Shown here: piece after piece, positions 42,131 through 63,900 of the stretch
Numbering within the stretch: position 1 is the first letter of the stretch
How the letters are laid out: the number at the start of each line of letters is the position of its first letter
Assembly: GCA_034189655.1 (NCBI GenBank)
Contig: JAXHUE010000002.1
Span: 32,207 to 96,206 of the forward strand
DNA length: 64,000 nt
Reading direction: 5' to 3'
From: Chloroflexota bacterium
GTDB taxonomy: Bacteria; Chloroflexota; Dehalococcoidia; E44-bin15
Made by a program: the position numbers and the translations under genes
Notes under the pieces: generated by a model
Database searches by the model: none
What the model was told of the DNA's origin: nothing
What the model saw: only the letters and a program-made list of their open reading frames with translations

Positions 42131-42904
42131 CTACCTGCCCTTGAACTCCGGCTTTCGCTTCTCTATGAAGGCCCGCATCCCCTCCATGCGGTCCTCGCTG
42201 CTCAACAGGGTGGCGGCAGACTTGGACTCGTATTCCAGTGCCTCGAGGAGGCTCATCTGCATGCCCACGTTGACGCAGTACTTGAGCGCGCGCAGGGAGA
42301 GCGGCGGCCTCTCGGCGAGCTCGGCGGCCCATTTCTTGGCCTCTGCAATGAGCTCCTCCGGGGCCACCACCTTGTTCACCAGCCCGATGGTGTAGGCCTC
42401 CTCGGCGCCGATGCGGTTGCCGAAGTACAGGAACTCCTTGGCCCTGCCCGGCCCGATGAGGCGGGGCAGCCTCGCCGTGCCACCGCCGGCGGGGATGACG
42501 CCCAGCTTCACCTCGCCCAGCCCGAAGGTGGCGGCGGTGGACGCGATGCGGAAGTCGCAGCACAGTGCGAGCTCCAGGCCGCCGCCGTTGCAGGCCCCGT
42601 TTATGGCGGCTATCACCGGCTTTGACACGTCCTCCAGCTTGTTGAAGAAGGTATAGCGTCGGCCGATGGGGAGCGGCTTGGCCGTGGGGTCGGTGAGCTC
42701 CTTGATGTCGGCCCCGGCGCAGAAGCCCCTCCCGGCGCCGGTTAAGACCAGCACCCGCACCTCAGGATCGTCGAAGGCCTCGTCTACCAGCGCCTCCAGG
42801 TCGACGGCGAGCTGGTAGTTGATGGCGTTCAGGCGGTCCTCCCGGTTGAGGGTGACCATGCCGATGCCTTCTTCCTTCTGGTAGATCAGGGTTTGGTATG
42901 CCAT
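42131..42904 (-). CDS. Enoyl-CoA hydratase/isomerase (crotonase) family protein
   Basis: 257 aa. GAGRGFCAGADIKE oxyanion-hole motif. RBS AAGGAGG. Confidence 0.9.
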   Translation of the reverse strand: MAYQTLIYQKEEGIGMVTLNREDRLNAINYQLAVDLEALVDEAFDDPEVRVLVLTGAGRGFCAGADIKELTDPTAKPLPIGRRYTFFNKLEDVSKPVIAAINGACNGGGLELALCCDFRIASTAATFGLGEVKLGVIPAGGGTARLPRLIGPGRAKEFLYFGNRIGAEEAYTIGLVNKVVAPEELIAEAKKWAAELAERPPLSLRALKYCVNVGMQMSLLEALEYESKSAATLLSSEDRMEGMRAFIEKRKPEFKGR

Positions 42905-43207
42905 GCTCTAACCTCCTTTTATATCCAGGGTCTATCCCCTCTCCCCTCGCCTTCTGCCCCCGCGCCGGCGTGCCGGCGGCTGTAAATCTACAGGATTTCA
43001 CTGCCGAAGTCAATATAGCCACTCCCGCGGCCACCGGCCACCCGCCCGGATGCAGCCGCCCCGCTTGACAGACCACCGGCCTGGGATTAATCTAGTCCAT
43101 GTCCGAGATGGGGGGCAGGTCATGTGTGTGATTTAGAGAGGAGGTGCGCGCAACTGGTTACCACAACGTACTACGGAGACGTGCATATTCCAAGAAAGGA
43201 GAAGTAA

Positions 43208-44422
43208 GTGGCAGAACAGGTGCTATCAGATGTCAAAGTGCTGGACGTCACCCAGCACATCGCTGGCCCCTACTGCACCAAGCTGCTCGCTGACTATGGG
43301 GCGGAGGTGATCAAGGTGGAGAGGCCCGGTCAGGGAGACCCGGCGCGCCGGCTGGGCCCTTTCTACGGCGATGAGCCTCACCCTGAGAAGAGCGGGCTGT
43401 TCGCCTATCTCAACACCAACAAGAAGGGCATAACACTGAACTTGGAGAGCGAGTGGGGCAAGAGGCAGTTCAAAGAGTTGGTAAAAGATGTCGATATCCT
43501 GGTAGAGAATTTCCCTCCCCGCGTGATGCCGGGTCTGGGCCTGGACTACAGCGTCCTGGAGCAGATAAATCCCAGGCTGGTCATGACCTCTATCAGCGAC
43601 TTCGGCCAGAGCGGTCCCTACCGGGACTACAAGGCATCGGAGATAATCATATACGGCATGGGCGGTGCCATGTTCTGCAACGGCCTGCCCGAGGAGGCGC
43701 CGCTCAAGAAAGGGCTCACGGTCACCCTGTTCCAGGGTGGGGTCATGGCGGTGGTGGCCACTATGATGGCGTTCCTCCTCGCCAGGGAGAGTGGCAGCGG
43801 CCAGCACGTCGATGTCTCCCTCTACGAGACCCAGATGGGCACCATAGACCGCCGCATGAGCCAGCTCATCGTGTACCAGTACAACAAGGCGGTGACCTAT
43901 CGTGCTGACCCATCGGTGAGGAGGATGTTCCCCTTCGGCATATACCCCTGCGACGACGGCCACTTCGAGCTGGCGGCGGTGGGCAACCTGTGGCCCGCCG
44001 TGGGCAGGATGATGGACATGCCGGAGCTCATCGAGGACCCGCGGTTCTCCAACATCATAGCCCAGATGACGCCGGGGCACCGCGATCAGTTCGACGAGAT
44101 ATGGTACCCCTGGATAATAGAGCGCACCAAGAAGGAGATCGTCACCAAGGGTCAGGAGGGCGGAGCCCTCTGCGGCCCGCTGGCCACCATGGAGGAGGTG
44201 GTGAACGACCCTCACTTCAACGCCCGTAACTACTTCCGCGAGATAGAGCACCCCGTGATCGGGAAGGTCACCTACCCCGGCCCACCCATTAACAGCGGCT
44301 CGCTGCCCTGGGAGATCAGGAGCGCCGCCCCACTCCTAGGCCAGTACAACGAAGAGGTCTATGGCCGGCTGGGCTACTCCAGGGAGGACCTGGTCGCCTT
44401 AAAGGGCCAGGGGCTCATCTAG
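43208..44422 (+). CDS. Family III CoA-transferase (CaiB/BaiF), subunit 1 of a tandem pair
   Basis: 404 aa. N-terminal VLDVTQHIAGPYCTKLLADYGAEVIKVE and conserved Asp region typical of CoA_transf_3. Confidence 0.9.
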   Translation: MAEQVLSDVKVLDVTQHIAGPYCTKLLADYGAEVIKVERPGQGDPARRLGPFYGDEPHPEKSGLFAYLNTNKKGITLNLESEWGKRQFKELVKDVDILVENFPPRVMPGLGLDYSVLEQINPRLVMTSISDFGQSGPYRDYKASEIIIYGMGGAMFCNGLPEEAPLKKGLTVTLFQGGVMAVVATMMAFLLARESGSGQHVDVSLYETQMGTIDRRMSQLIVYQYNKAVTYRADPSVRRMFPFGIYPCDDGHFELAAVGNLWPAVGRMMDMPELIEDPRFSNIIAQMTPGHRDQFDEIWYPWIIERTKKEIVTKGQEGGALCGPLATMEEVVNDPHFNARNYFREIEHPVIGKVTYPGPPINSGSLPWEIRSAAPLLGQYNEEVYGRLGYSREDLVALKGQGLI

Positions 44423-44437
44423 GTAAGGAGGAAGGAA

Positions 44438-45742
44438 ATGGCTAAACTACCGCTGGAAGGCGTGAGGGTAGTGGAGGTCTGCCCCATATGGGCGGGCCCG
44501 TTCGCCTGCATGCTTTTAGCCGACTGGGGGGCCGAGGTCATCCGCGTGGAGTCCAGGTACCACTTCCCGGTGTATACCCGCGGCGTGCTCGCCCGTCCCC
44601 CGATACAGCTCGCAGAGCAGACACCGTCCGGCTATGCCGCCTACTGCCTCGAGGGGTACGACCCTCAAAAGGCGTTGAACCAGTTCGTGCTCTTCAATGC
44701 CCACGCCCGCAACAAGCTGGGGATGACCGTTGACTTGAGGCGGCCCGAGGGCAAGGACATATTCAAGAGGCTGGTCAAGGTGAGTGACATAGTCATAGAG
44801 AGCCAGTCCCCGCGGGTGATGGAGGAGCTGGAGCTCACCTACGACGCGCTCAAGGAGGTGAACCCCAGTCTCATCATGGTCTCGCTGCCCGCCTTCGGGC
44901 AGACCGGGCCCTACAAGTACTACCGGGCGCTGGGGGCCCACCAGGAGGGGTTCGTGGGCCATACCTACCTGCGGGGGTATGCCGACCGCGACCTCAGCAA
45001 CAACGTCACCCTGTACCAGACCGACGAGACCGGCGGGGCCACCTGCGCCTTCGCCGCCCTCATGGCCCTGCACAAGAGGCGGCGCACCGGCGAGGGCATG
45101 TACGTGGACATGAGCCAGTCCGAGGCCACCATCTCCATCCTGGCACAGGCGGTGATGGACTACACCATGAACGGCCGCGTCACGGAGCGGATGGGCAACC
45201 GCGACTACCACGGGGCCATCCAGGGCTGCTACCGCTGCTGGGGCCGGGACGACTGGGTCTGCATCACCATAAACAGCGAAGAGGAGTGGGATGGCTTCGT
45301 GCGCGCCCTGGGCGAGCCCCAGTGGGCCGCGGACGATAAGTTCTCCGACCACGTGCTGCGCCTGAAGAACCACGACGAGCTCGACCGCCACATCGAGGCG
45401 TGGACCCGCCAGCACGAAAAGTACGAGGTGATGCACCTGCTCCAGGCGGAGGGTGTGCCCGCGGGACCGGTGCTGGACGAGCGGGATGCCTACACCGACC
45501 CCCACATGAGGGAGCGGGGTTTCTTCCAGGAGCTCACCCAGGCCGACTGCGGCACCCACCTCTACCCGGGGCTGCCCTGGCGCATGAACAAGACCCCCAA
45601 CGAGGTCAAGAGGCCCCCGGTGCGCTTCGGGGAGCACAACGAGTACGTGTACAAGCAGGTCATCGGGGTGTCTGACGAAGAGTACCAGTTCCTGGAGAAG
45701 GAGGGCCACATCGGCACACACTACATCCCGGAGATGTTCTAG
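44438..45742 (+). CDS. Family III CoA-transferase (CaiB/BaiF), subunit 2 of a tandem pair
   Basis: 434 aa. VVEVCPIWAGPFACMLLADWGAEVIRVE. 15-nt spacer with RBS AAGGAGGAAGG after the previous gene. Confidence 0.9.
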   Translation: MAKLPLEGVRVVEVCPIWAGPFACMLLADWGAEVIRVESRYHFPVYTRGVLARPPIQLAEQTPSGYAAYCLEGYDPQKALNQFVLFNAHARNKLGMTVDLRRPEGKDIFKRLVKVSDIVIESQSPRVMEELELTYDALKEVNPSLIMVSLPAFGQTGPYKYYRALGAHQEGFVGHTYLRGYADRDLSNNVTLYQTDETGGATCAFAALMALHKRRRTGEGMYVDMSQSEATISILAQAVMDYTMNGRVTERMGNRDYHGAIQGCYRCWGRDDWVCITINSEEEWDGFVRALGEPQWAADDKFSDHVLRLKNHDELDRHIEAWTRQHEKYEVMHLLQAEGVPAGPVLDERDAYTDPHMRERGFFQELTQADCGTHLYPGLPWRMNKTPNEVKRPPVRFGEHNEYVYKQVIGVSDEEYQFLEKEGHIGTHYIPEMF

Positions 45743-45769
45743 CACCTCTCCAGGGACGGGTTGATAGCG

Positions 45770-45810
45770 AGGCCGCCATCGGTGCACAGGCTACCTGCCG
45801 ATGGCGGCCT
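45770..45810. terminator. Bidirectional terminator hairpin (13-bp perfect stem) between the CoA-transferase pair and the nitroreductase
   Basis: AGGCCGCCATCGG-15 nt loop-CCGATGGCGGCCT, followed by TTCC. Confidence 0.6.
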
Positions 45811-45841: not shown

Positions 45842-46510
45842 CTAGTCGAAGCCGTACCAGGTGGTGAACGCCTTCACGGGCTCGCGCGCGCTCACCAGCT
45901 TGTTCGCCGGGAAGTCCCAGTCGGGATAGCCGATGGCGATGGAGATGGTGAGCAGCTTGGAGCGGGGTATGCCGGTGTGCCTTCGCACCACGTCGGGGTA
46001 CATGACGCCCTGGGCGGCGATGCAGGTGCCCAGGCCGTAGCTCATCGCGACCAGGCATATGGTCTGGGTGAAACAGCCGATATCGAACTGGGTGCGCGCC
46101 ATGCCCACCGAGCTATCGGCGGAGATGATGAGCGCCGCCGGGGCATCGAAGAAGCGGAAGCCGCGCTGCGTCCACTCCGCACGCTTCTCTTTGTCCTCGC
46201 GGGAGATCCCCATGAGCCCGAAGAGCTGGATGGCCAGGTCTACCTGGCGCTGGCGGTAGACCCCTTCTAAAGGGGGAAGGGGGACGTCGGTATCGGGCAT
46301 GGTGCCCTGGGCTATCGCGGCCACGTTGTCCCGCTTGATGGCCTCCAGCACCTCGCCGGCGATGACCGCCACCTCCCAGGGCTGCGAGTTGAGCGCCGAG
46401 GGGGAGCGCGTGGAGATGTCCAGTATCTCCTGTAGCACCTCTCTGGGCACCGGGTCCGGCTTGAAGGCCCTCACGCTTATTCGCCCCTTTATCGCCTCTA
46501 TGACGTCCAT
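45842..46510 (-). CDS. Nitroreductase-family flavoprotein
   Basis: 222 aa. RISVRAF...SALNSQPW nitroreductase signature. Confidence 0.85.
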   Translation of the reverse strand: MDVIEAIKGRISVRAFKPDPVPREVLQEILDISTRSPSALNSQPWEVAVIAGEVLEAIKRDNVAAIAQGTMPDTDVPLPPLEGVYRQRQVDLAIQLFGLMGISREDKEKRAEWTQRGFRFFDAPAALIISADSSVGMARTQFDIGCFTQTICLVAMSYGLGTCIAAQGVMYPDVVRRHTGIPRSKLLTISIAIGYPDWDFPANKLVSAREPVKAFTTWYGFD

Positions 46511-46671: not shown

Positions 46672-47505
46672 ATGATCAGTGTTGCTGATGGGGTGTACGT
46701 GGAGACCTCGTTCCCCGGCGCCAACGTGGGCTGTGTAGTCACCGAGCAGGGGGTGGTAGTCATCGATACCCCCATGCTCCCTGAAGAGGCCGACACACTG
46801 CGCCGTGAGCTTGGGCGGCTGACCCAGAGGGAGGTCGCATACGTGGTCTACACCCACCAGCACTTCGACCACGTCATGGGCGCAGCCTACCTCACGCGGC
46901 GCGCCATCGCCTGCAGTGCCGCGGTGAGCGGCATTGCCCGCCTCAGGACCGGCCTTGAGAGCGAGCTCTCGCTCTTCTCGCCAGACCTCTATCGCGAGAG
47001 GAAGGAGATGTTCGATGGCCTGGACATCGTTCTCCCCCAGATAACATTCGACACCGAGCTGGGCATGCACATGGGCGATGCCGACCTCGCGCTGTCCTTC
47101 GTCGGCGGTCACTCCTCGGCCTCCATCATCATCCACGTGCCCCAGGCGCGGGTGCTGTTCGCCGGCGACAACGTGGTGACCGGGCAGCTCCCGGTTACCG
47201 CCAACGGCAGGTTCGGCCCGTGGATAGCGCTGCTTGAGCGCATCGAGGGGATGGAGCTGGACGTCATCGTCCCGGGACATGGTGAGGTGTGTGGAAAAGA
47301 CGGGGTGAGTGCCATACGCCGCTACTTCGAGGCGATGCGCGACCGGGTGCGGGAGATGGCTGGCGCCGGGGCGAGCAGGGAAGACGTGGCGCAGGGGATA
47401 GACCTGCGCGATTGCCTGCCTGTCCCCGTGAGCGAGGAGGCGACTGCGCAGGCCGCCTTCGACGCCGCTCGCATGTACGACCAGATGGCCAAGGGACTGC
47501 TGTAG
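46672..47505 (+). CDS. MBL-fold metallo-hydrolase
   Basis: YTHQHFDH (HxHxDH) motif. RBS AAGGAGGGAGAGG. Confidence 0.85.
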   Translation: MISVADGVYVETSFPGANVGCVVTEQGVVVIDTPMLPEEADTLRRELGRLTQREVAYVVYTHQHFDHVMGAAYLTRRAIACSAAVSGIARLRTGLESELSLFSPDLYRERKEMFDGLDIVLPQITFDTELGMHMGDADLALSFVGGHSSASIIIHVPQARVLFAGDNVVTGQLPVTANGRFGPWIALLERIEGMELDVIVPGHGEVCGKDGVSAIRRYFEAMRDRVREMAGAGASREDVAQGIDLRDCLPVPVSEEATAQAAFDAARMYDQMAKGLL

Positions 47506-47621
47506 GGTGCCCCCTGCTCTTCGTCCAGCCTGCGGCGGGTATTGACGTGGGTGGTGGCAGGGGATAAGATTAGCTACAGTATGCTCGAACGTTGCCCGCA
47601 GCAATTACGTACGTGCCCGCG

Positions 47622-50600
47622 ATGAGGTACTATCTTGGCATTGACGTCGGCTCGGTCGGCGCCAAGCTGGCCCTGGTCGACGAGGGATACTCCATAGTGA
47701 GGCTCGACGGCGAGAGGATAACCTCCAGCCCCACCGCTGCCGTCGCCTCGCTTATCTCCAGGCTGGGCCGCGATGTCGACCTCGGTGCAGTCGAGGCCGC
47801 CGGCTGCTCCGGCTCCGGGAGGGGAGTGATACCCGCGGACATGGGCTGGGCGGGGTACAGCAGCTCGCTCGCCGTCGCCTCCGGCCTCCTCCACCTCCAT
47901 CCCCAGGCCAGGACCGTCATCCAGATAGGCGGGCAGAGCTCCCTGGTGATAACGCTGGAGGACGGGCTCAAGAAGCCGTGGAAGGTGGCCTCGAACCCCC
48001 TCTGTGCCGCCGGCACCGGCAGGTTCCTGGAGCAGCAGGCCTATCGCCTGGACATCAGCATGGAGGACTTCTCCCGCCTGGCACAGGAGTACAAGGGCCA
48101 GGCGCCGCGGATAGCGGCCCGCTGCAGCGTGTTCGCCAAGACCGACCTCATCCATCTCCAGCAGAAGGGTGTGCCACTGGGGGCCATGCTCTGTGGCCTG
48201 TGCGACAGCATCGCCCGCGGCGTGGCCTCCTTGACCAGGGGCCCCCTGGAGGAGCCGATATATTTCGTAGGTGGGGTCGCCGCCAACGGCGCCATCGTGC
48301 AGGCCCTGGAGGAGGTGCTCTCGGCGAGGGGCGGCCACCGGGTGCAGGTGACCGTTCCCCGGGACTGCCGCCACGTAGAGGCCCTGGGCGCCGCCCTGCT
48401 GGCGCGGGGCTCGGGGAGGCGCTCCACCGTGGCCGCACTGCCCAGGTTGAGCGCCGGGCAGCGCTACTGGGAGCTGCCCCCGCTTGAGAGGCAGGACGGC
48501 CGGGAGGAGTGGCACCGGCCCGATCTATCGCCGCCGTTGGAGGGGTACCTGGGCGTCGATGTCGGCTCCACCAGCACTAAGGCCGTGGTCCTGGACCGCT
48601 CTGGGGGCGAGGTGCTGGCCAAGTGCTACCTCATGACGCAGGGGCGGCCCGTCGATGTCGTCAAGGAGGTGTGCCGCAACCTGCTCCGCGATGTGGGTGA
48701 GGGGGCACACATACTGGGGGTGGGCGTCACCGGCTCGGGCAGGTACCTGGTGGGCAGCTTCATCGGCGCCGACGTCATCAGGAACGAGATCACGGCACAG
48801 ACCAGGGCCGCCGCAGAGATCGACCCCGATGCCGATATCATCGAGATCGGCGGCCAGGACTCCAAGCTGGTCATCAAGAGGAACGGCGTCGTCGTCGACT
48901 ACCAGATGAACAAGGCGTGTGCCGCCGGCACCGGCAGCTTCATCGACGAGCTCGCCGAGCAGCTCGGCGTGTCGGTGAAGAACGGCGACTTCGCCCGGCT
49001 GGCCTTCGATGCCCCCTACACCATAGACCTGGGGTCGCGGTGCGCCGCCTTCATGGGACAGGCCGTGGCCGCGGCGCGGCAGGAGGGGGTCTCTATAGAG
49101 GTGATAGCGGCCAGCCTGGCCAACTCCATCGCCTCGAACTACCTCTCCAAGGTGGTGGGGATGAGGAGGCTGGGGGAGAGGGTGATACTCACCGGGGCGG
49201 TGTTCTATAACGACGCCGTGGTTTCCGCATTCACCCACGCGCTCGAGGGCAGGGAGACCGTCGTGCCCCGGCACAAGGAGGTGAGCGGTGCCATCGGTGC
49301 CGCCCTCCTCGCCAGGGAGGAGATGGTGGGGGGCGGCTCCCGGTTCAAGGGGTTCCGCGAGATAGTCGAGAGCGACTATACGCTGAAGACGTTTACCTGC
49401 AAGCGGTGCGAGAACAACTGCACCATAAGCCGGATGCAGATGCCCAACGAGCCGGCGACATACTACGGGAGCAGGTGCGACCGCTACGACGCCCGCTTCG
49501 ACCAGAAGAAGGTGGAGACCGCCTTTGACGAGCGGGAGAGGCTGCTCTTCGCCGGCGTGAGGGAGGCGACGGGCACCGGGCCCACCGTGGGCATCCCCAG
49601 GGCGCTCATCATATATGACTACGCCCCGCTCCTCATCGGCTTCTTGAGCGAGCTGGGGGCCAGGCCCGTCCTCTCGGGGCGGACCAACAAGCAGGTCATG
49701 GAGCAGGCCGTCGAGCTCAGCTACCCCGATAGCTGCTTCCCCGTGAAGCTGCTGCACGGGCACGTGGCCACCCTCGAAGAGGTCGACTACATCATGCACC
49801 CCTGCGCCATCAGGCTGGGCAGGAAGGAGGGGGATGAGAACCAGAAGTACTCCTGCCCGCTGGTGCAGGCGGCCCCCTTCATCGTGCGCCAGGCATTTGA
49901 CCTGGGGAAGAGGCTGCTGGTGCCTATCATCGACCTGAGCCGCGGCGACGACGATACCATAGAGAGCCTGGCCGACTGTGCCGTCGAGATGGGGTACCGC
50001 CGCCGAGAGGGCCGCCGGGCGGCCATCGCCGCCATGAGGCGACAGCGGGAGTTCGAGGCCAGCCTGGAAGAGCGGGGCAAGGCCCTCCTGGAGGAGCTCC
50101 ACCGCGGCGACAGGCTGGGCGTGGTGTTCCTGGCCCGCTCCTACATGTCGCAGGACTCAGGGGCCAACCTGGGCATCGCCGAGAAGCTGGCCCAGCTCGG
50201 CGTGGTGCCGATACCGCTCGACTTCCTCCCCCTGGCCCAGGTGGATGTCGGCGAGTACTCCGACCGCCCCTACTGGTACTACGAGGGCAAACACATCGCC
50301 GGTGCCGCCCTGGTCGCCCAGGACCCCCAGCTCTACGGGCTGGTGCTCACCAACTTCGGCTGCGGCCCCAACTCCTTCGTGCTCAACATCGTCGAGGACA
50401 TCATGGGGGGCAAGCCCCTGGGCCAGCTCGAGATAGACGAGGACGCCGCGGAGGCCGGCATCGTCACCCGCCTCGAGGCCTTCGTCGATACCATAAAGGG
50501 ATTTGCCTCCTCGGGCAGGTCGGAGCACGTCAGGGCGTGGGACCAGGGTGCCTATCGCTCGGCGCCCACGCTGGTGAACGCGAAGAAGCTGCTCTTGATA

Positions 50601-53220: not shown

Positions 53221-53340
53221 ATGCTCTCCCCCTCGTCACTCTTGACCTGATGGGTCCATTTTACTTGACAGAACGATGACAATATTATACCATGCCGCTG
53301 TAGAATAATAACACAGGCGTCGTAAAAACCCCAAGAGACA

Positions 53341-53437: not shown

Positions 53438-53480
53438 GAGCCCTCTCAGGGTAGTACTGGGGAGGGCTTCTCGCATTTTA
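53438..53480 (+). terminator. Intrinsic terminator-like hairpin (putative riboswitch expression platform) before the kinase start codon
   Basis: GAGCCCUC...GAGGGCUUC 7-bp stem followed by UCGCAUUUUA. 20 nt upstream of the ATG at 53501. Confidence 0.5.
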
Positions 53481-53500
53481 CTGCAGGGGGGTCGGTAATA

Positions 53501-56500
53501 ATGAAGAGAGGGGATGTGAGCAAGCAGGACCAGGGAGTTGAGGGCAGGAAGAGGGAGGCAAAGCGGGAGGAGGAGGTCCCGGAAGAGGGGCTTCTGGAGC
53601 GGGTTGAGAGCAGTGCCGAGGAGCTCGAGCGCTCGGAAGAGCGATACCGGGAACTTGTAGAGAACATAAACGACGGCTATCTGGTGGTGAGGGGGCGAAA
53701 GGTCGTTTTCGCCAACAGGCGGTGCGCCGACCTCCTGGGATACCCGGTGAGGCAGATCGTAGGGAAGAACTTCGCAGACCTCGTAGCCGAGGAGTCGCGT
53801 GAGGGGGCGGCAGAACTCTACAAGAGGAGCATGAGCGGGGAGCGACTGTCAGAGCGCCGTGAGGCCTTATTACGGCGAAAAGACGGTACAAAAGTACCGG
53901 TCGAAATGACCCTAAAGGACATCACCTATGATGGCAGGCCCGCTGTCTCTGCCATGTTCTGTGATATCACGGAGAGAAAGGGAGTGGAGCGTGAGCTGTG
54001 GCGGAGGACGTTTGAGCTCGGCGAGCGAGTCAAGGAGCTGAACTGCCTCTACAGCCTCTCCAATCTGGTGCAGCGGCGGGATATAGCGCTCGCTGAAGTA
54101 TTTCAGGGCGCGGTCGAGCTCGTCCCCCCGACATTGCAGTACCCTGATGTGGCGTGTGCCCGGCTGCTCATCGAGGGCCAGGAGTACAGGACGGGCAACT
54201 TCGTCGATACCGAATGGAGGATAAGCTGCGATGTCACTGTGCATGGCGAAGTCATAGGGAAACTGGACGTCTGTTACGCAGAAGAGGTACAGAAGAGCTA
54301 CGGGGGCGTATTCCTTCCAGAGGAGAGGGCACTGCTCCATGCCGTCTGCGGGCGGCTGGGTGAGACCATAGAGAGACGGCGGGCGGAGGGGGAGATTAGG
54401 GCCTCGAAGGAGAAGTACCGCCACCTGCTCGAGGAGATACACGATGGCTACCTGGTGGTACAGGGGGGAAGGGTGGTCTTCGCCAACACGCGCCTGGGGG
54501 AGATACTGGGCTACGGCCCTGAGGCGCTGGGGCGTCCCGTCAATGAGTTCATGCCAGAGTATCTACTGGGCCGGGCGACCGAGCTACGGGAGAGGGTGGT
54601 AAGCGGCGAGGACATATCAGAGCCCATGGAGACCACGGTGCTCACCAAGGACGGCGCCGAGCTGCCCATAGAGGTCAGTATTAAGACGACAGAGTACGAG
54701 GGGAAGCTGGCCATCGCTGTGCTGGTGAGGGACATCTCCGAGCGCAGGCGCGCCGAGGAGATGCGCAGGCGCGAGGAGGAGAAGTACCGCTACCTGTACG
54801 AGTATCAGCCTGCGGTGAACTTCATTATTGGCAATGATGGGACACTGGTGGACATCAATCAGGCGGGCCTGTCCACGTTTGGCTATACGAAGGATGAGCT
54901 CGTGGGCAGGGGTGTCCTCGACCATGTCGTCCCCGAGGAAAGGGAGCGCGTGGCACAGCAGATGGCCAGGGCATTCCAGGGTGAACACACGCCGGGGCTG
55001 GACGTGGATATCTACGCCAGTGACGGCTCGGTCCACACCATGTGGTTCTCACCGGGCCACGTGATCCCGGCGGATGGGGCGCAGCAGGCCATCATGCTCG
55101 CCACCGGTGTCGACGTCACCGAGCGTAAAATGGCGGAGGAGGAGCGCAGGCGCGCGGAGGAGAGGTACCGCCAGCTCCTGGAGGACATAGACGACGGCTA
55201 CTTCGTGGTCCAGGACGGAAAGATAGTCTTTGCCAACACCAGGTGCACCGAGATCCTGGGCTACGGGCCGGAGGCCATTGGGGAGTCTGTGGCCACCTTC
55301 GTGCCGCCGGGACAGGAGCATCACATAGCCGCCTTCGGGGAGGCCTTCTCCGGAGAGGGTGAGGTGGCGCTGCACGACGAGATGTCGGTGCTCACCAAGG
55401 ATGGCAGCGAGGTCCCGGTGGAGATACACGCCAGGAGGGCGCTGTACATGGGTCGGCCCGCCCTCACCGTCGTCATCAGGGACATCTCGGAGCGCGCGCG
55501 CGCGGAGCGGGAGCTCAAGGCATCGGAGCAGAGGTACAAGGCGCTCCTGGAGGACATAAACGACGGTTACTTCGTGGTCCAGGACGGCGTGATAGTGTTC
55601 GGCAACGGGCGGCTGGCCGAGATGTTCGGATATTCGCTCGATGAGGTGCTGGGCAGCCGGCTCGTCGACATTGCGCTGGACAGCGCAAAGGATATGGTGG
55701 CGCTCATGATGTTCGCCTTCGAGCAGGGAGGGGCCGTCCCGGAGCGCGTGGAGATTACCGGGACCGATCCCAGGGGGGGCGGCGATATCACCATAGAGAT
55801 AAGGATGAGCGTCATCGACTACCTGGGACGGCCGGCCATAAACGGCATCATCAGGGACATTACCGACCGCAAGCGCGTTGAGATGGCGCTTCAGGCGGAG
55901 AAGGCCTACTCCCAGTCGCTGGTGCACAGCCTGCCCGATATGCTGCTCACCATAGACCCTGAGGGCAAGATAAGCTATGCCAACGATGTGATGGTGGTCT
56001 TCACTGGCGTAGAGCTGGAGCAGCTCGTGGGGAGGCCCCTGGGGCAGGTACTGCAGGAGATAAATATCCTGGACGCCCGGACGGCCACCCTCGTTACCAG
56101 GCGCATGAAGAAACGGTTGAAGACAGGCCTGCCGGCGCGGGGCGTAGAGCTGGAGATGAGAAATGCCAGGGGTGAGTGGGTGAAAGGCCTGTACTCGACC
56201 TCTGTGATAAAGTCCCCCAGCGGCGAGATCCTGGGGCAGGTGGTGGTCATCAGTGACATCACCGACCGCGTGAAGGCAGAAGAGGAGCTCAAGCGGTCGG
56301 AGGAGAAGTACCGCAGGCTGGTGGAGGACATAAACGACGGCTACTTCGTGCTCCGCGATACCACCATCCTCTTTGCCAACGAGAGGATGGCGGAGATGAT
56401 GGGCTACGGCCTCGATGAGATCGTCGGGGAGGAGTTCCTCAGGTTCCTCGCACCAGAGGCGATAGAAGTGCCCACGCAGGTACACCAGAGGAGCATGGCC

Positions 56501-59443
56501 GGCGATGCCGTAGCCGGGCGCTACGAGACCGTGGTCGTCCGCAAGGACGGGTCCAGGATGGAGATAGACTTCAGCTTGAAAGACATTACCTTTGAAGGCA
56601 GGCCGGCGGTCTCCATCGTGGCCCGGGACATCACAGAGCGCAAGCGTGCGGAGAAGGAGCTCAAGGCATCCGAGGAGAAGTATAGGGAGCTAGTAGAGAA
56701 CATCAACGATGCCTATGCCGTGGTGCGGCGCGAGAACCTGGTGTACGTGAACAAGCGCTGTGAGGACATATTCGGCTATACGGCTGGCGAGATGGTGGGC
56801 CGGAGCTTCTTCGAGATGCTGGCGCCAGAGGTGGTAGAGCAGAACCTAAAGATACTGGCGGCGAGCCTCGACGGTGGCGACCTGCCCGACCACTACGAGA
56901 CCACTGCCATAACGAAGAGCGGCCAGAGGGTAGAGATAGACGTGAGCATACACCCTATCACGTACGAGGGGAGGCCTGCCTTCTCGGTGATGGCCCGGGA
57001 TGTGAGCGACCGCAAGCGGGCCGAGGATGAGCTCAAGCAGTCGGAGGACAAGTTCCGGCACCTGGTGAACGATATGCTCGACGGCTATGTCGTGTTGCAG
57101 GATGGCACCATCAGGTTCGTCAATGCGGCGCTGGCACAGATGAGTGGCTACTCGAGCGAGGAGCTGGTGGGCCGGAGATACGACGACCTGCTTGCCGTCG
57201 ATACCTCCCCGCTGGCCAAGGACATACGCCGCAGGGTTGCCGAGGGTGTGGAGGTCATGGAGCGGTTCCGGGGCGAGATCATAAGGGAGGACGGCACCGT
57301 GCTCCCCGTGGAGGCCGGTATCAAGGGCGTAGAGTATGAAGGACGTACCGCGGTGTCGGTCGTGGTGAGGGACATCACGGAGCGCAAGCGGGCAGAGGCC
57401 GAGATAGAGCGCCGCAACCGGGAGCTGGCCGTCTTGAACGAGGTGGCCCAGGTGGTGAGCCAGTCACTGGACATAGAGAAGATACTGAGCGACACCATGG
57501 ACCTGGTGATGGACTTCATGGAGACGGAGGCGGGCTGGATAGCGCTGGTGGACAGGGACAGCAACCGCTTTCTGCCGCTGGTGAAGAGGGGGGTGCCGCC
57601 GGAGATCCTCGCCATCATGCCAGACATCACCCCCGATATGGGGCTGGCCAGCCACGCCATCAGGACGGGCCAGCCGGTGGCACTCAACGACATTCGCCAG
57701 AATAGCATAGATGAGCTCGCTAAGCCGGCGCGTCCTCTCATGGGAAAGGTAGAGTTCAAGGCGCTGGCGCACGTGCCCATAGACTCAAAGGGAGATATAA
57801 TTGCCGTCATGACACTGGGCAGCCGCACCAAGCCGTCGTTCAGTGAAGGGGAGCTGGGCCTGCTCGGCTCCATCTGCCATGAGATCGGCGTCGCCATAGA
57901 GAATGCCCGCCTCTATGACGAGATAAGGGCGAAGGCCCAGGAGCTGGAGAAGGCCAACCGGCACAAGTCTGAGTTCATGGCCAGCATGTCCCACGAGCTG
58001 CGCACGCCGTTGAACTCCATCATCGGCTTCTCCGAGCTCATGCTCGATGGCATAACCGGAGACATAAACGATGAGCAGCAGCAGTGCCTGGAGGACATCT
58101 TGACCAGCGGTAAACAGCTCCTCATCCTCATCAACGGTGTCCTCGATATCTCGAAGATAGAGGCCGGCAAGCTGGAGGTCATGCCGGAGGTCTTCGACAT
58201 CGGGGAAGTGTTCGATGAAGCGCGGAGGACGATGTCGCCACTGGTGGAGGAGAAGGTGCAGACCCTCACCATGCACATCGAAGAGGGCATGCCCCCGATG
58301 TACGCCGATAAGGGGAAGATAAAGCAGGTGCTTTTGAACCTGCTCAGCAACGCCGTCCGCTACACCAATGACGGAGGCTCCATCGCGGCCGAGGCCAGGA
58401 GGGAGGGTGACCTCTGCCGCATATCGGTCGCCGATACCGGGATAGGCATCAGGGAAAAGGACCTGGAGAACGTCTTCCAGGCCTTCACGCAAGTAGGGGA
58501 ATCGCCGCTGAAGAAGGAGGGAGGTACCGGGCTGGGGCTTGCCATCGCCAAGCAGTTCGTAGAGATAAACGGCGGCATGATATGGGTCGAGAGCGAGTAC
58601 GGCAAGGGGAGCACCTTCATCTTTACCGTGCCCATCTATCGGGCGGATATGAAGCACAGTGAAGCGAAGAGGGAGGAGATGGTGCCCACCGCTGCCGAGG
58701 GTGGCGAGAGGTGCATCATGGTGGTGGACGACGACCGCGGGGCCAGGTCGCTCATGAGGCGCTGGCTGGAGGCAGAGGGGTATAGCGTGTGCGAGGTGTC
58801 GCAGGGCGCGGAAGCTGTGGAGACGGCCAAGAGAATTCGGCCCGCGGTGGTCACGCTGGATATAATGATGCCCGGCGAGGATGGGTGGACTGTGCTGCGA
58901 AGCCTAAAGACCACCAATGAGACGCAGGATATACCGGTAGTCATCGCATCCATGGTGGAGAACAGGGAGCTGGGCTTCGCGCTGGGGGCGGTGGACTATT
59001 TCGTGAAACCGGTGGAGAAGGAGCGCTTCCTTAAGAGGCTGACTGAGCTGGGCATAGGGAAGAGAGAGCGCGTGCTGGTGGTCGATGACGAGCCCAGAGA
59101 CGTACGCCTGACATCTGCCATCCTGGAATCGGAGGGGATGGAGGTGCTCAAGGCCTACGGGGGAAAGGATGGCCTGAAGCTTGCCAGGGAGAGACAGCCC
59201 AGCCTGATAGTGCTGGACCTCCTCATGCCCGACATGGACGGCTTCGAGGTGGTGCGGCACTTGCGGGAGGACGAGAGCACACAGGACATCCCCATAGCCA
59301 TCGTGACCATGAAGGAGCTCTCCGCCGAGGAAGAGGCAGAGCTTGCGAGCCAGGTGCAGTCCGTGATGCAAAAGGCTTCCTTCGATAGGAATGCCTTCAT
59401 CGCTGAGATAAGACGTATCGAGGGGCCACCGAGAGGGGGATAG
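53501..59443 (+). CDS. Hybrid sensor histidine kinase: about 10 tandem PAS domains, GAF, HisKA, HATPase_c and two C-terminal receiver domains
   Basis: 1980 aa. Repeated PAS linker motif ERKRAEEELKxSEEKYRxLVExINDGY. HisKA H-box SHELRTPLNSIIGFSEL. G-box GTGLGLAI. Two REC domains (VVDDD...D...K). Confidence 0.9.
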   Translation: MKRGDVSKQDQGVEGRKREAKREEEVPEEGLLERVESSAEELERSEERYRELVENINDGYLVVRGRKVVFANRRCADLLGYPVRQIVGKNFADLVAEESREGAAELYKRSMSGERLSERREALLRRKDGTKVPVEMTLKDITYDGRPAVSAMFCDITERKGVERELWRRTFELGERVKELNCLYSLSNLVQRRDIALAEVFQGAVELVPPTLQYPDVACARLLIEGQEYRTGNFVDTEWRISCDVTVHGEVIGKLDVCYAEEVQKSYGGVFLPEERALLHAVCGRLGETIERRRAEGEIRASKEKYRHLLEEIHDGYLVVQGGRVVFANTRLGEILGYGPEALGRPVNEFMPEYLLGRATELRERVVSGEDISEPMETTVLTKDGAELPIEVSIKTTEYEGKLAIAVLVRDISERRRAEEMRRREEEKYRYLYEYQPAVNFIIGNDGTLVDINQAGLSTFGYTKDELVGRGVLDHVVPEERERVAQQMARAFQGEHTPGLDVDIYASDGSVHTMWFSPGHVIPADGAQQAIMLATGVDVTERKMAEEERRRAEERYRQLLEDIDDGYFVVQDGKIVFANTRCTEILGYGPEAIGESVATFVPPGQEHHIAAFGEAFSGEGEVALHDEMSVLTKDGSEVPVEIHARRALYMGRPALTVVIRDISERARAERELKASEQRYKALLEDINDGYFVVQDGVIVFGNGRLAEMFGYSLDEVLGSRLVDIALDSAKDMVALMMFAFEQGGAVPERVEITGTDPRGGGDITIEIRMSVIDYLGRPAINGIIRDITDRKRVEMALQAEKAYSQSLVHSLPDMLLTIDPEGKISYANDVMVVFTGVELEQLVGRPLGQVLQEINILDARTATLVTRRMKKRLKTGLPARGVELEMRNARGEWVKGLYSTSVIKSPSGEILGQVVVISDITDRVKAEEELKRSEEKYRRLVEDINDGYFVLRDTTILFANERMAEMMGYGLDEIVGEEFLRFLAPEAIEVPTQVHQRSMAGDAVAGRYETVVVRKDGSRMEIDFSLKDITFEGRPAVSIVARDITERKRAEKELKASEEKYRELVENINDAYAVVRRENLVYVNKRCEDIFGYTAGEMVGRSFFEMLAPEVVEQNLKILAASLDGGDLPDHYETTAITKSGQRVEIDVSIHPITYEGRPAFSVMARDVSDRKRAEDELKQSEDKFRHLVNDMLDGYVVLQDGTIRFVNAALAQMSGYSSEELVGRRYDDLLAVDTSPLAKDIRRRVAEGVEVMERFRGEIIREDGTVLPVEAGIKGVEYEGRTAVSVVVRDITERKRAEAEIERRNRELAVLNEVAQVVSQSLDIEKILSDTMDLVMDFMETEAGWIALVDRDSNRFLPLVKRGVPPEILAIMPDITPDMGLASHAIRTGQPVALNDIRQNSIDELAKPARPLMGKVEFKALAHVPIDSKGDIIAVMTLGSRTKPSFSEGELGLLGSICHEIGVAIENARLYDEIRAKAQELEKANRHKSEFMASMSHELRTPLNSIIGFSELMLDGITGDINDEQQQCLEDILTSGKQLLILINGVLDISKIEAGKLEVMPEVFDIGEVFDEARRTMSPLVEEKVQTLTMHIEEGMPPMYADKGKIKQVLLNLLSNAVRYTNDGGSIAAEARREGDLCRISVADTGIGIREKDLENVFQAFTQVGESPLKKEGGTGLGLAIAKQFVEINGGMIWVESEYGKGSTFIFTVPIYRADMKHSEAKREEMVPTAAEGGERCIMVVDDDRGARSLMRRWLEAEGYSVCEVSQGAEAVETAKRIRPAVVTLDIMMPGEDGWTVLRSLKTTNETQDIPVVIASMVENRELGFALGAVDYFVKPVEKERFLKRLTELGIGKRERVLVVDDEPRDVRLTSAILESEGMEVLKAYGGKDGLKLARERQPSLIVLDLLMPDMDGFEVVRHLREDESTQDIPIAIVTMKELSAEEEAELASQVQSVMQKASFDRNAFIAEIRRIEGPPRGG
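53630..57420 (+). repeat. Array of about 9-10 diverged tandem direct repeats (about 375-390 nt each) encoding the PAS modules
   Basis: Recurrent DNA blocks such as GAGGAGAAGTACCGC...CTGGAGGACATAAACGACGGCTACTTCGTG at 55.15, 55.53, 56.29, 56.67 and 57.05 kb. Confidence 0.6.
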
Positions 59444-59448
59444 ACTTT

Positions 59449-59835
59449 GTGGTGGAGGGACACGGTGTGAAGAAGACTATTCTGGTGGTGGAGGATAACC
59501 CCAAGAACATGAGACTTATGAGGATGATCTTGAGTGCAAACGGCTATGACGTGCTGGAGGCAACCGACGGCGAGGAGGGGCTGAAGATGGCCCAGGAGGG
59601 GAGGCCTGATCTCATCGTACTTGATATTCAGCTCCCCAAGATGGAGGGCACCGAGGTCGCAAAGCGGCTCAGGGCCATGCCGGAGTTCGACGGCATTCCC
59701 CTGATAGCGCTCACCGCCTATGCCATGAAAGGCGACCAGGAACGGATACTGGAGGCCGGTTTCGATAGCTACATGTCGAAGCCGATAGACACCCGCGAGT
59801 TACCCTCTCTAGTAGCGCAGATGCTCTCGCGGTAG
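59449..59835 (+). CDS. Single-domain CheY-like response regulator
   Basis: ILVVEDNPKN...DLIVLDIQLP...K receiver motifs. 128 aa. GTG start 6 nt after the kinase stop. Confidence 0.85.
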   Translation: MVEGHGVKKTILVVEDNPKNMRLMRMILSANGYDVLEATDGEEGLKMAQEGRPDLIVLDIQLPKMEGTEVAKRLRAMPEFDGIPLIALTAYAMKGDQERILEAGFDSYMSKPIDTRELPSLVAQMLSR

Positions 59836-59869
59836 GCCAGGCAACCGTTGCCGTCGCGGTGCGGGGCCC

Positions 59870-61099: not shown

Positions 61100-61110
61100 G
61101 ACGACCTCCT

Positions 61111-62397
61111 TTATATGATGCCCCGTGAGGTGAGCAGCTCGAGCTCCTGGCGAGAGAGGCCCAGCTCCTTGTGGTATACGTCCAGGTTGTGCTCGCCCAC
61201 CAGGGGTGGTCTCCCCTTTACCTGCCATGGGGTCTCTGAGAGCCTGTAGGGAGGCCCGGCGTACTTTATGGTCACGCCCAGCTCGGGGTGGTCCACCTCG
61301 ACGAAGTAGTCGCGGTCATTCAGGTGAGGGTCGTTGACCAGGCCCGCCGGGTCGCTCACCGGGGCGCATATGAAGTGCTGGCGCTGCCCCTCCTCGTAGA
61401 GCTCGGCCACGGGGTGTGCCGCCAGGAACCTCTTGAACACCTGGTCCAGGTGTTCCATGCGCATCATCCGCTCCAGGAAGGCGTCGGTGCCGATTAAGCT
61501 CATCATGGCGGTGCGGTCGCCCACAGACTTGATGAAGTCTTGCCACTCCTCGTTCATGAGGTCTTCGGCCATGCCCTTGGAGTCCATCCACTTCACCACG
61601 TTTTCCCAGTCGATGAGGAGCAGCCACAGCATGTAGCCGTCCTTGCACTGGTAGACGTCCCTCCCCGGGACGCGGATGCCCAGTCCCCCTACCGGCGTCC
61701 CGCCGAAGCCCCAGCGCTTCCTGATCTCATTGCGCAGGTCGTAGAACTGCATCGCCGTCTCCATGGCGATGGTGGTGCACTCCTGCCGCGAGATGTCGAT
61801 GGCCTGCCCCTCGCCGCTCACGTCCCGCTCGAAGAGGGCGATGGAGATGCCGGCGGCGCCGTGGAGGGAGCCCATGTAGTGTGACTGGTAGCCGTACGTG
61901 CGGTAGGGTGCCGCATCGGGAAAGCCCCCCAGGTACATGAGACCGCCCATGGCCACGACGACGATGTCCGGGGCCTTGAAGTCGCGGAAGGGGCCGCTCT
62001 GTCCGAAGCCGCTTACGGAGCAGAAGATGAGCCCCTGGTTTATCTCCTTCAAGACGTCGTATCCCAGGCCCATCTTCGCCATGTGCCCCGGGGGGAAGCT
62101 CTCCACCAGGACATCGGCGCCCTCCACCAGCCGCTTCAAGAGCGCGCGGCCGTCTGCGGTATCGAGGTTCAGCGTGATCCCGCGCTTGCTCCGGTTCAAG
62201 GCGAAGAAGTGAAGGCTCCGCTCCGGGCCGGGGATATCGTGCACGAATGGCCCCATGCCCCGTGATAGGTCACCGCCTGGGGGCTCCACCTTGATCACGT
62301 CGGCGCCCAGCTCGGCGAGGAGCTGGCTGGTGTAGGCGCCGACGTCATCGGCGAGGTCGAGCACCCTGATGTCGCCCAGAAGTGTCTCCTGTAGCAC
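61111..62397 (-). CDS. Family III CoA-transferase (CaiB/BaiF), subunit 1 of second tandem pair
   Basis: IRVLDLADDVGAYTSQLLAELGADVIKVE. 428 aa. 11-nt spacer to the downstream paralog. Confidence 0.9.
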   Translation of the reverse strand: MLQETLLGDIRVLDLADDVGAYTSQLLAELGADVIKVEPPGGDLSRGMGPFVHDIPGPERSLHFFALNRSKRGITLNLDTADGRALLKRLVEGADVLVESFPPGHMAKMGLGYDVLKEINQGLIFCSVSGFGQSGPFRDFKAPDIVVVAMGGLMYLGGFPDAAPYRTYGYQSHYMGSLHGAAGISIALFERDVSGEGQAIDISRQECTTIAMETAMQFYDLRNEIRKRWGFGGTPVGGLGIRVPGRDVYQCKDGYMLWLLLIDWENVVKWMDSKGMAEDLMNEEWQDFIKSVGDRTAMMSLIGTDAFLERMMRMEHLDQVFKRFLAAHPVAELYEEGQRQHFICAPVSDPAGLVNDPHLNDRDYFVEVDHPELGVTIKYAGPPYRLSETPWQVKGRPPLVGEHNLDVYHKELGLSRQELELLTSRGII

Positions 62398-62779
62398 TAT
62401 CGCACCTCCGTTATGTTGGAAAGGTTATAGCTGGGGCTACCCCACAGATGAGGCAGCCACTATCGGTGGCACACGGGATATGGAAGCTGATGAGGGTGTT
62501 TCTATACCTCCCTTTCTGTGCGTAGCGTTCTTTAGATGGGCAGCATATTCGGTCGAAGCCTGGCGGCAGGTACAGTGCGGGGAAGGGGAAGAAGGCATGC
62601 GCCGTTAGTATACCACGTATAGAGTGCTTGTCAAGATACCCGGGGGAGGGCCCTCCGGGGGTGCGTGGCTCCACAGGCGTTCGCTTCTGCGGTGGAGGAG
62701 ATGGCGGGGCGTGCTCTGTGGGCCGGTCCAGGGTGTAGGTAGAGCAGCGGTCGAAATACCTCCTTCCGGCTATCACAAC

Positions 62780-62808
62780 TTGACATTTTGCGAATAAAAA
62801 ACTAGACT
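62780..62808 (+). promoter_or_regulatory. Promoter TTGACA-17-TAGACT for the GAF-LuxR regulator
   Basis: Consensus -35, 17-nt spacer, -10-like TAGACT 24 nt before the ATG. Confidence 0.45.
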
Positions 62809-62832
62809 GTAGATGTCGGCTGGAGTGGGAAG

Positions 62833-63900
62833 ATGACAGTATCAGGCAACATTCCCCGCGGCCGGGAGGTCGTACTCCAAGGTGGCGAGAGGTTCGGCCT
62901 GCCACTCCTTGAGGTGGGCAGGGCTCTCGTGTCGCTGGCCGATGTTCAAAGCCTGCTCATGCTCACCATAGCGAAGGCCGTAGAGGGCATAGAATCGGCT
63001 GACGCTGGACTGATCTGCCTCTACGATAACACACAGGGCAAGCTTATGGTGAAGGCCGCCTTCGGCTACGGCCAGGAGGTCTGGAATATATCGGCCAACC
63101 CGGAGAGGGGCGGCGCTCCAGGGATGGTGTATAAGACTCGCCGCAGCAGGATATGGTCGTCGCCCGAAGAGGTCAGCGGGCTGATAGCCAGCCTGGACAC
63201 CTGGGACCAGCAGCACCTCACAAGGGCGCGGAGGAGGCTCCCGCGTCCCACCAGCGTGGTGTGCAGCCCTCTTATGGCCAAGGACAGGTTCATCGGGTGT
63301 ATTCACCTGGAACACTACACCAACCCTGCCCCGTTTTCCATGTGCGACCTCGCACTGCTGCACTCGTTCGCAGAGCAGGTATCACTTGCCGTAGAAAACG
63401 CCATGCTCTTCAAGGAAATGCAGCGCAAAGAGACGACGTGGTCCGAGCTGCTCTACTGGCTGCTCATCGCCCGGGAGTACGAGCGAAGGCGTATCATGTC
63501 GGTGCTGGAGGACGATGTCAACCAGGTGCTGGAGGTCCTGGACGCAGAGCTGGAGGTCCCGGAGAGTGAGCTGAAAGGCCTGGCCGGGCAGCACCAGGGC
63601 ATGAGGGCGATGCGGGACAACCTGTATAAGATAGTGGACGAGATGCATAGCCTGTCACCGAGCACGAGGGTTGTGCCTCTGGGTGGAGAGGAGGAGAGCT
63701 ACGATGGTCTCACCTCAAGGGAGAAGCAGATAATCCGGCTGGTGGCGGAGGGGAGGACCAACAAAGAGATCGCCGACCTTCTGTGCATAAGTATAAGGAC
63801 CGTGCAGTCCCACCGCGCCAACATAATGGAAAAGCTCGAGATGCATGACCGCACTGAACTGGTGCGCTATGCCATTCGTAAGGGCCTTGTCACCCCTTAG
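62833..63900 (+). CDS. GAF-domain plus LuxR-type HTH transcriptional regulator
   Basis: N-terminal GAF-like region. C-terminal LTSREKQIIRLVAEGRTNKEIADLLCISIRTVQSHRANIMEKL is the LuxR/FixJ HTH signature. Confidence 0.85.
   Translation: MTVSGNIPRGREVVLQGGERFGLPLLEVGRALVSLADVQSLLMLTIAKAVEGIESADAGLICLYDNTQGKLMVKAAFGYGQEVWNISANPERGGAPGMVYKTRRSRIWSSPEEVSGLIASLDTWDQQHLTRARRRLPRPTSVVCSPLMAKDRFIGCIHLEHYTNPAPFSMCDLALLHSFAEQVSLAVENAMLFKEMQRKETTWSELLYWLLIAREYERRRIMSVLEDDVNQVLEVLDAELEVPESELKGLAGQHQGMRAMRDNLYKIVDEMHSLSPSTRVVPLGGEEESYDGLTSREKQIIRLVAEGRTNKEIADLLCISIRTVQSHRANIMEKLEMHDRTELVRYAIRKGLVTP

Follow-up and report, generated by a model that had tools for sequence, protein, structure and literature searches.

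BbsEF-type CoA-transferase pairs, a PlsA/Ger-like fusion protein and a riboswitch-preceded kinase operon lie side by side in a Dehalococcoidia genome

PlsA/PlsR of C. perfringens, the single-gene forms of Enterococcus, Listeria, Lactococcus and Bifidobacterium, and Ger of T. maritima and D. alkenivorans share one layout of ~1400 aa, Act1-Act2-Red1-Red2, in which a pair of activase domains is accompanied by DUF2229 and by small HGD-D pieces (PMC13159169, PMC12838417). Acting on membrane lipids, these enzymes convert the ester at sn-1 to an ether of the vinyl or alkyl type (PMC13159169, PMC8788747, PMC12838417, PMC9702350), and homologues in Chloroflexi have already been reported (PMC13159169, PMC12838417, PMC8788747, PMC11868695, bioRxiv 10.64898/2026.06.23.733905). 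Activase domains of the BcrAD_BadFG family and catalytic modules of the 2-hydroxyacyl-CoA dehydratase/benzoyl-CoA reductase (HAD/BCR) fold are likewise found in the phenyllactate (FldAIBC) and 2-hydroxyisocaproate (HadAIBC) dehydratase systems and in the class I benzoyl-CoA reductases. A different described system, BbsEF (PDB 9fn0/9fol/9fun), is the succinyl-CoA:(R)-benzylsuccinate CoA-transferase, whose two family III subunits differ from each other and are encoded by neighbouring genes. Here, I compare these systems with a 22-kb gene set (positions 42131-63900) in a 64-kb stretch of contig JAXHUE010000002.1 of an uncultured member of the Dehalococcoidia, hereafter the window, which encodes a 1392-aa activase-fusion protein, hereafter the giant, and four family III CoA-transferases (CT1-CT4), the only ones in the window.

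Around these genes lie an enoyl-CoA hydratase (ECH), a nitroreductase (NTR), a metallo-beta-lactamase-fold hydrolase (MBL) and four regulators. A sequence-only reading had regarded the whole as an accessory-like island for CoA-thioester metabolism with dedicated signalling, built on the logic of FldAIBC and HadAIBC. Its gene list stands, every gene having been recovered at its coordinates by the ORF listing and Pfam scans that provided the gene calls, with matches all far above the gathering scores. Set against about 100 related loci, the region is nonetheless a mosaic of known kinds of modules rather than one new CoA-ester pathway with its own regulators, and none of these modules is a new kind of system. 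With fair probability, the stretch is ordinary core chromosome in which independent modules stand side by side, in the manner proposed below.

The giant (47592-51770, + strand) probably starts 7-10 codons downstream of 47592. Pfam finds two BcrAD_BadFG domains (PF01869 at residues 12-270 and 320-574) and DUF2229 (PF09989 at 665-878), so that its modules read Act1 (~12-270), Act2 (~320-575), a CxxCxxxC...C motif (603-629), Red1/DUF2229 (665-878) and Red2 (~1000-1390); both the module order and the length are those of PlsA/Ger. The C-terminal 813 residues, comprising Red1 and Red2, hold eight further invariant Cys. A PDB sequence search with the whole protein returned activase domains only, the N-terminal domains matching the HadI and HgdC activators (E 1e-24 to 1e-25) and BCR ATPase subunits. 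The C-terminal half was modelled with AlphaFold2 (residues 580-1392; pLDDT 81.6, pTM 0.81), and the Foldseek matches of this model were confident only for the double-cubane cluster protein (DCCP), BzdNO/MbdON and HadBC (probability 1.0; 11-13% identity). A faint PF06050 (HGD-D) match follows DUF2229 (E 0.2; 11.6 bits against a threshold of 28.4), a trait shared with PlsA/Ger. Judging from the modelled fold, the giant belongs to the BCR/HAD superfamily as a fused form.

A full-length comparison is offered by a 1475-aa protein of L. monocytogenes, WP_014600632.1, to whose residues 3-1387 the residues 14-1372 of the giant can be aligned (27% identity, E 5e-117). Both proteins have the same Pfam layout, and the Fe-S Cys fall at aligned positions. 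The Listeria sequence, the sole comparator from a cultured organism, was taken from Listeria chromosomes mislabelled within a plasmid collection; as Listeria is reported to carry active plsA/plsR orthologues (PMC9702350), it is presumably the active Listeria plsA. Among relatives, a search with the reductase half at E<=1e-30 retrieves 731 cluster representatives, and of the 150 listed the majority are ~1350-1450 aa long and match at their C-terminal end. Relatives of the giant occur in at least 561 GTDB species genomes, and its nearest homologues come from metagenome-assembled genomes (MAGs) of Dehalococcoidia/Chloroflexota, at 65-74% identity among the closest 120 in the databases. When the reductase half is compared with full-length fused representatives, identity steps down from 58% to 47%, to 37% and then lower, which sets the giant and its kin apart as a separate, highly conserved subfamily of Dehalococcoidia. 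A further difference from a described member is that the PlsA of E. faecalis has a TetR-type regulator upstream (PMC9702350), whereas the giant has none.

By analogy with PlsA/PlsR and Ger, the giant may be viewed as a self-sufficient radical enzyme. A [4Fe-4S] cluster would be held jointly by its two fused activase ATPase domains, which would, through ATP hydrolysis, drive a low-potential electron by way of a cluster presumably bound at the Cys motif into the two HAD-like reductase modules, where the sn-1 acyl ester of membrane glycerolipids would be converted into a vinyl or alkyl ether under anoxia.

An enzyme of this kind is expected to be encoded by a stand-alone gene, and the neighbourhood of the giant in relatives bears on this point. 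The comparison set comprised 80 species-level genome loci and four metagenome loci with a giant orthologue (53-73% identity), 82 of them distinct, with flanks of up to 10 kb a side (on average 11.7 kb per locus). Homologues of the window's CoA-transferases lie in the flank of 5 of the 82 distinct loci, with an upstream same-strand pair in loci L001/L002 (one species) only, and ECH lies in four; NTR, MBL, GGDEF, PAS kinase and GAF-LuxR genes are found in 0/82 flanks. The seven CoA-transferase genes counted in 0.96 Mb of flank amount to a density (7 per Mb) not visibly above chance for CoA-transferase-rich genomes. Clustering of the flank ORFs yielded no neighbour family present in more than 12 of the 82 loci, and the ten commonest families, judged by eye with no domain search, are seemingly unrelated housekeeping genes: a C45-type peptidase, an ABC ATPase, a thioredoxin-like protein, CinA, XerC/D, an aminotransferase, RibBA, a pyridine-nucleotide-disulphide oxidoreductase, a 4-hydroxybutyryl-CoA dehydratase-like protein and a carboxyltransferase. 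The giant thus behaves as a stand-alone gene, as expected of a self-sufficient PlsA/Ger-type enzyme, and the co-localisation that an integrated system would predict is nearly lacking in relatives.

Three observations from these loci deserve mention in their own right. The gene plsY, which lies 6 kb upstream of the giant in the window, was considered as support for a lipid role and rejected, since it is near the giant in 0/84 loci. In L004 (3221-9936), a thiolase, a thiolase-like gene and two DUF35 (zf-ChsH2/OB) genes stand beside Hdr-like Fe-S flavoproteins, on the same strand as the giant orthologue. L053 (94-4221) belongs to a MAG labelled Syntrophus aciditrophicus, and its giant orthologue, at 59% identity, falls inside the Dehalococcoidia range of 53-73%, pointing to either a lateral transfer or a binning error.

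Several points weigh against a lipid-modifying role. The identity of 27% is low and refers to a lone PlsA-type comparator, the verified enzymes (C. perfringens Q8XL48/Q8XL47, E. faecalis Q835P9, T. maritima AGL49404 and D. alkenivorans SHJ90043) standing outside this comparison, and because the close relatives of the giant form a distinct subfamily its substrate could differ. No lipid-synthesis gene is among the conserved neighbours of the giant, and ether lipids are, as far as I know, unreported from Dehalococcoidia. Two neighbourhoods moreover look operon-like: in L001/L002 only 36 bp separate a CoA-transferase A/B pair from the giant, which follows it on the same strand, and in L004 the thiolase/DUF35 set lies 64 bp upstream of the giant.

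The sequence-only reading would have the transferases make the CoA thioester of a hydroxy- or aromatic acid, which the giant would dehydrate or reduce through a ketyl radical in the way of FldAIBC/HadAIBC, the neighbouring genes providing the regulation. The two operon-like neighbourhoods fit such a pathway, as do the activator matches of the N-terminal domains, the HadBC/BzdNO/DCCP fold of the C-terminal half, the position of the transferases at 1.8 and 8 kb from the giant in the window, and the distance of its subfamily from other PlsA-like ones. What makes this pathway unlikely is, to begin with, the layout of the giant, collinear with the Listeria protein and shared with enzymes shown to act on lipids and not on CoA esters (PMC13159169). 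FldAIBC and HadAIBC have a separate homodimeric activator and PF06050 heterodimer subunits, whereas the giant is all in one chain, shares only 11-12% identity with HadBC, and matches PF06050 at an E value of no better than 0.2. The giant also has no conserved CoA-transferase partner, nor any conserved ECH, NTR or MBL neighbour, given the flank counts above, and the transferases of the window resemble BbsEF instead of the homodimeric FldA/HadA type. Of the proposed union of a family III transferase, an activase and a (de)hydratase-like domain, what survives is thus the BCR/HAD/double-cubane fold of the giant's C-terminal half, and not the integrated system.

The fold also invites a different proposal, improbable in its turn, in which the giant is a DCCP fused to DCCP-R, or another small-molecule reductase of the BCR/HAD superfamily acting on neither lipids nor CoA esters. 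Indeed, Foldseek ranks the DCCP structures 6eno and 7yzm (E 3e-6) first for the C-terminal half, the ATPase domain has a match in 7yyl_E, the activase DCCP-R, and the eight invariant Cys of Red1 and Red2 are above the need of two 3-Cys [4Fe-4S] sites. The resemblance to DCCP, however, amounts to 13% identity and a TM of ~0.45, BCR/HAD subunits score nearly as well, and the relatives that are collinear over the full length are PlsA-type fusions. A related thought, which I hold to be quite improbable, is that the Dehalococcoidia subfamily as such is an ATP-driven radical reductase or dehydratase working on CoA thioesters supplied by BbsEF-like transferases, and not a lipid enzyme; a role of this kind would explain the operon-like arrangements of L001 and L004 together with the proximity of the genes in the window. 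The PlsA/Ger-type reading of the giant is therefore retained, with the two operon-like cases kept in mind.

As to the CoA-transferases, they form two pairs, CT1 (43208-44422, +) with CT2 (44438-45742, +), which match PF02515 at E values of 4e-97 and 2e-99, and CT4 (61111-62397, -) with CT3 (59870-~61102, -), likewise assigned by Pfam. The start of CT3 is placed near 61102 rather than at 61228, as the product in a 99%-identical assembly has 409 aa. Within the window, two types can be told apart, CT1 going with CT4 (A-type) and CT2 with CT3 (B-type), at 34% identity each, and the order A to B is the same in both pairs. The two types find their best PDB matches, reciprocally, in different chains of 9fn0, namely chain A for CT4 and CT1 (217 and 175 bits) and chain B for CT3 and CT2 (313 and 197 bits). 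Three of the four match their chain clearly better than any other structure, whereas for CT1 the margin is small (174.8 vs 173 bits). With 41% identity between CT3 and chain B over 400 columns, the CT4-CT3 pair is the closer to BbsEF, and the CT1-CT2 pair is far more divergent.

The catalytic Asp was located by reference to Asp169 of E. coli YfdW. In both joint and pairwise alignments, an Asp occupies this column in all B-type subunits and in 9fn0 chain B, and it is missing from CT1, CT4, their orthologues and 9fn0 chain A. The residues found there in A-type proteins are T/L, S/H or A/Y, the last being those of 9fn0 chain A. From these alignments, CT1 and CT4 would be non-catalytic A subunits, and the Asp-bearing CT2 and CT3 the catalytic B subunits. 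The likeness to BbsEF noted in the sequence-only reading is hence borne out by the chain matches, by the conserved gene order and by an Asp restricted to the B-type. As an aside, the A-type subunit of the pair in L001 (300-2733) retains 'DD' at the catalytic column.

The pairing is also conserved elsewhere. An A-type gene stands directly upstream of the CT3 homologue (50-63% identity) in 6/6 loci inspected, the flanks of which vary from one locus to the other, and many CT3 homologues of 50-55% identity are labelled 'BbsF subunit' by JGI. Homologues of such pairs number in the thousands, in Dehalococcoidia and Desulfobacterota. A case in point concerns locus L085, a metagenome contig, where the orthologues of CT4, CT3, CT1 and CT2 (51-65% identity) are four consecutive genes on one strand (2896-8225), those of CT1 and CT2 (64% and 65%) following directly behind those of CT4 and CT3. 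Since the two pairs make up a single four-gene cluster in L085, they belong together, and the 14 kb between them in the window are not needed for their association. Their position in the window, 14 kb apart and on opposite strands, suggests that a rearrangement has taken place there; an inversion with one end at the hairpin near 45770 (see below) would unite the two pairs.

Some differences from BbsEF concern the context. The pairs are found outside a bbs operon, with no BbsG dehydrogenase, BbsCD or BbsAB adjacent, and the window has no benzylsuccinate synthase. For want of this operon context, the substrate is probably an acid other than benzylsuccinate. The only adjacent gene that recalls such an operon is the crotonase-type ECH (42131-42904, -; PF00378, E 3e-68), divergent from CT1-CT2, which is to be regarded as a generic short-chain ECH because all NCBIfam equivalogs score below their cut-offs; an ECH also lies near BbsEF-like pairs in L086, L110 and L112. 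Most likely, the two transferases would move CoA from a donor such as succinyl-CoA to substituted dicarboxylic or other organic acids, and the neighbouring crotonase would act on the enoyl-CoA formed from that thioester after dehydrogenation, by a dehydrogenase encoded outside this stretch. A literature search on BbsEF-like genes in Dehalococcoidia and on the BbsEF structure returned nothing usable.

Between CT2 and the giant lie the NfnB-like flavoprotein NTR (45842-46510, -; PF00881) and the MBL-fold hydrolase (46672-47505, +; PF00753). PDB and NCBIfam searches place them at the family level only, NTR finding its best PDB matches in 3gr3 and NfnB 2wzv and MBL having generic family matches. 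In 10 of the 21 metagenome loci retrieved with the MBL gene, an NTR orthologue directly precedes that of MBL on the same strand, most of the other 11 having too little upstream sequence to judge. The same arrangement recurs in L086, a locus found via its CT3 homologue. Altogether, the loci with NTR followed by MBL are L086, L088, L091, L093-L098, L100 and L104 (61-77% identity), with NTR orthologues at 62-77% and an MBL orthologue of 61% in L086, L094 and L096; in L091, L093 and L097 the NTR match is split, residues ~105-169 being missing. Relative to these loci the NTR gene of the window is inverted, so that it and MBL are divergent.

The NTR-MBL pair adjoins a CT4/CT3-type pair in L086, L094 and L096. 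These three share all percent identities and thus probably represent one population, which leaves about one further lineage beyond the window with this arrangement. A CT4-like fragment follows MBL in L092, and in longer loci (L098, L089 and L099, for example) no transferase is found nearby. NTR and MBL thus form a genuine unit of two genes, loosely linked to the transferases, a conserved pair that would at times travel with them.

The signalling genes were held by the sequence-only reading to be dedicated to the CoA genes. Three of them occupy the segment downstream of the giant: a diguanylate cyclase with a receiver domain (REC), a GAF domain and a GGDEF domain (51781-53220, -); a hybrid histidine kinase of 1980 aa (53501-59443, +), with ~9 PAS, GAF, HisKA, HATPase and two REC domains; and a CheY-like single-domain REC (59449-59835, +), which after a gap of 5 bp makes a two-gene operon with the kinase. 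The cyclase has an intact GGEEF active site and an RRED I-site, as read from its translation, and the H-box of the kinase reads SHELRTP. At 53339-53426 (+), 75 nt upstream of the start codon of the kinase, lies a riboswitch aptamer of the cyclic di-GMP (c-di-GMP)-I-GGC type (Rfam RF03167; 69.1 bits with a gathering score of 59; E 3e-14), matched over its full length (model 1-80 of 80). A promoter-like site precedes it (53265-53293); after it, at ~53440-53487, comes a GC stem of 7 bp with a T-rich tail, which from its sequence could be a terminator or expression platform.

As a full-length match in a 5' leader beside a GGDEF gene, this element resembles the described GGC variant of c-di-GMP-I (GEMM-I) riboswitches; it differs in that the gene downstream is a PAS-rich hybrid kinase of 1980 aa. 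As far as I know, no experiment has established which ligand the GGC variant binds, and a literature search on it found nothing usable. Because the riboswitch stands before the kinase operon and opposite the GGDEF gene, the cyclase, the kinase and the CheY-like protein may be seen as a self-contained circuit, in which a REC-GGDEF cyclase would act together with a divergent, riboswitch-controlled operon. None of the four regulators lies beside the giant or the transferase pairs in the relatives examined. The fourth, a GAF-LuxR regulator with a GerE helix-turn-helix (62833-63900, +), may be a local regulator of CT4-CT3 given its divergent position; no homologue of it lies near the transferase pairs in L085-L087, and no GerE/GAF domain is listed in L110-L112. 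That the signalling is dedicated to CoA metabolism is accordingly not borne out.

Transcription signals had been claimed for every unit, both promoter-like sites and strong hairpin terminators, and each claim holds in part. The 13-bp GC-rich hairpin at 45770-45810 lies between the convergent CT2 and NTR genes, and their 99-nt intergenic region folds on both strands with minimum free energies of -50.3 and -49.2 kcal/mol (z -3.2 and -3.6), 0/200 shuffles being as stable. By its sequence it is a probable bidirectional terminator, although not a canonical intrinsic one, having only two T after the stem. A short-distance inverted-repeat scan missed this hairpin, and intergenic folding was used instead. 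At the other convergent junctions, 51770/51781 (only 10 bp) and 59836-59869, folding was no better than in shuffles, and the terminator claim therefore holds for one junction only.

As to promoters, sigma-70-like sites are enriched (11 vs 3.4 +/- 2.0 in shuffles) and are present in the upstream intergenic region of 7/9 transcription units, not of all nine. Within 62300-64000 they number 3 vs 0.7 in shuffles. Here a divergent control region of 435 bp (62398-62832) has strong promoter-like sites on both strands, one for CT4-CT3 (11/12 with an extended -10, 62634->62607), giving a leader of ~210 nt with zero Rfam matches, and one for GAF-LuxR (10/12, 62780-62808). A 164-aa ORF across this region (62411-62905, -) is taken as non-coding because of its low GC3 (0.56 vs 0.76-0.91 for real genes) and its lack of a Pfam match.

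The accessory character of the stretch fares no better than the signalling. The window has a GC content of 64.5%, and the 34 kb upstream of the gene set are housekeeping, with NAD synthase, recA, recX, RNase Y, ymdB, plsY, gyrA, lon, mnmG, his genes and others. The CheY, LuxR and kinase genes, with GC3 values of 0.76-0.81, are somewhat below the metabolic genes. No atypical composition, no mobility gene among the ORFs scanned and no bordering tRNA sets the 22 kb apart, and no feature marks them as an accessory island. A horizontally acquired island with a catabolic pathway is thus very improbable: the gene combination is not kept in relatives and GC dips slightly at 52-60 kb and 62-64 kb (0.59-0.62 vs 0.645), but GC3 of the metabolic genes (0.84-0.91) is like that of recA, rny and ymdB (0.83-0.85), no integrase or transposase domain was matched among the ORFs scanned (most of the window, save ~12.9-14.6 and 17.1-18.2 kb), the sole tRNA of the window, at 26210, is 16 kb off, and the giant is vertically conserved across the class.

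A few further observations concern the assembly and the remainder of the window. The same region, 99% identical, is present in ENA ERZ23498357 scaffold_318 (L109 15608-21120), with two scaffold gaps and two indels; there the gene caller split the big kinase into small antisense ORFs, the 1980-aa ORF being intact in the window only. A 154-aa ORF (41615-42079, +), overlapping the end of plsY by 4 bp, combines a Cys-rich motif near its N-terminus, resembling a zinc ribbon or B-box, with a hydrophobic C-terminal half; its GC3 (0.85) is that of a coding sequence, and it matches no family with confidence. At 493-2991, two distinct cobalamin adenosyltransferase genes, of the BtuR/CobO and PduO types, lie around a gap of 226 bp and are followed by an acyl-CoA dehydrogenase, the sole further CoA-metabolism gene in the window. 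Two long ORFs, 10345-12816 (-; 823 aa) and 23207-24421 (-; 404 aa), are candidate genes with zero Pfam matches at E<=1e-5.

To sum up, the locus offers three leads: the BbsEF-type pairs, a strongly conserved PlsA/Ger-like gene predicting ether lipids in Dehalococcoidia, and a variant riboswitch before an unusually large sensor kinase. The pairs represent acid-activating enzymes of an uncharacterised family that occurs outside hydrocarbon degraders, and the riboswitch lends itself to testing which ligand the GGC variant binds. Dehalococcoidia are reported to be abundant in euxinic Black Sea water (PMC11868695). Should the giant function as a PlsA/Ger enzyme, members of this class would be likely makers of plasmalogens or alkyl-ether lipids, which would bear on the question of which organisms make the bacterial ether lipids that serve as environmental proxies.

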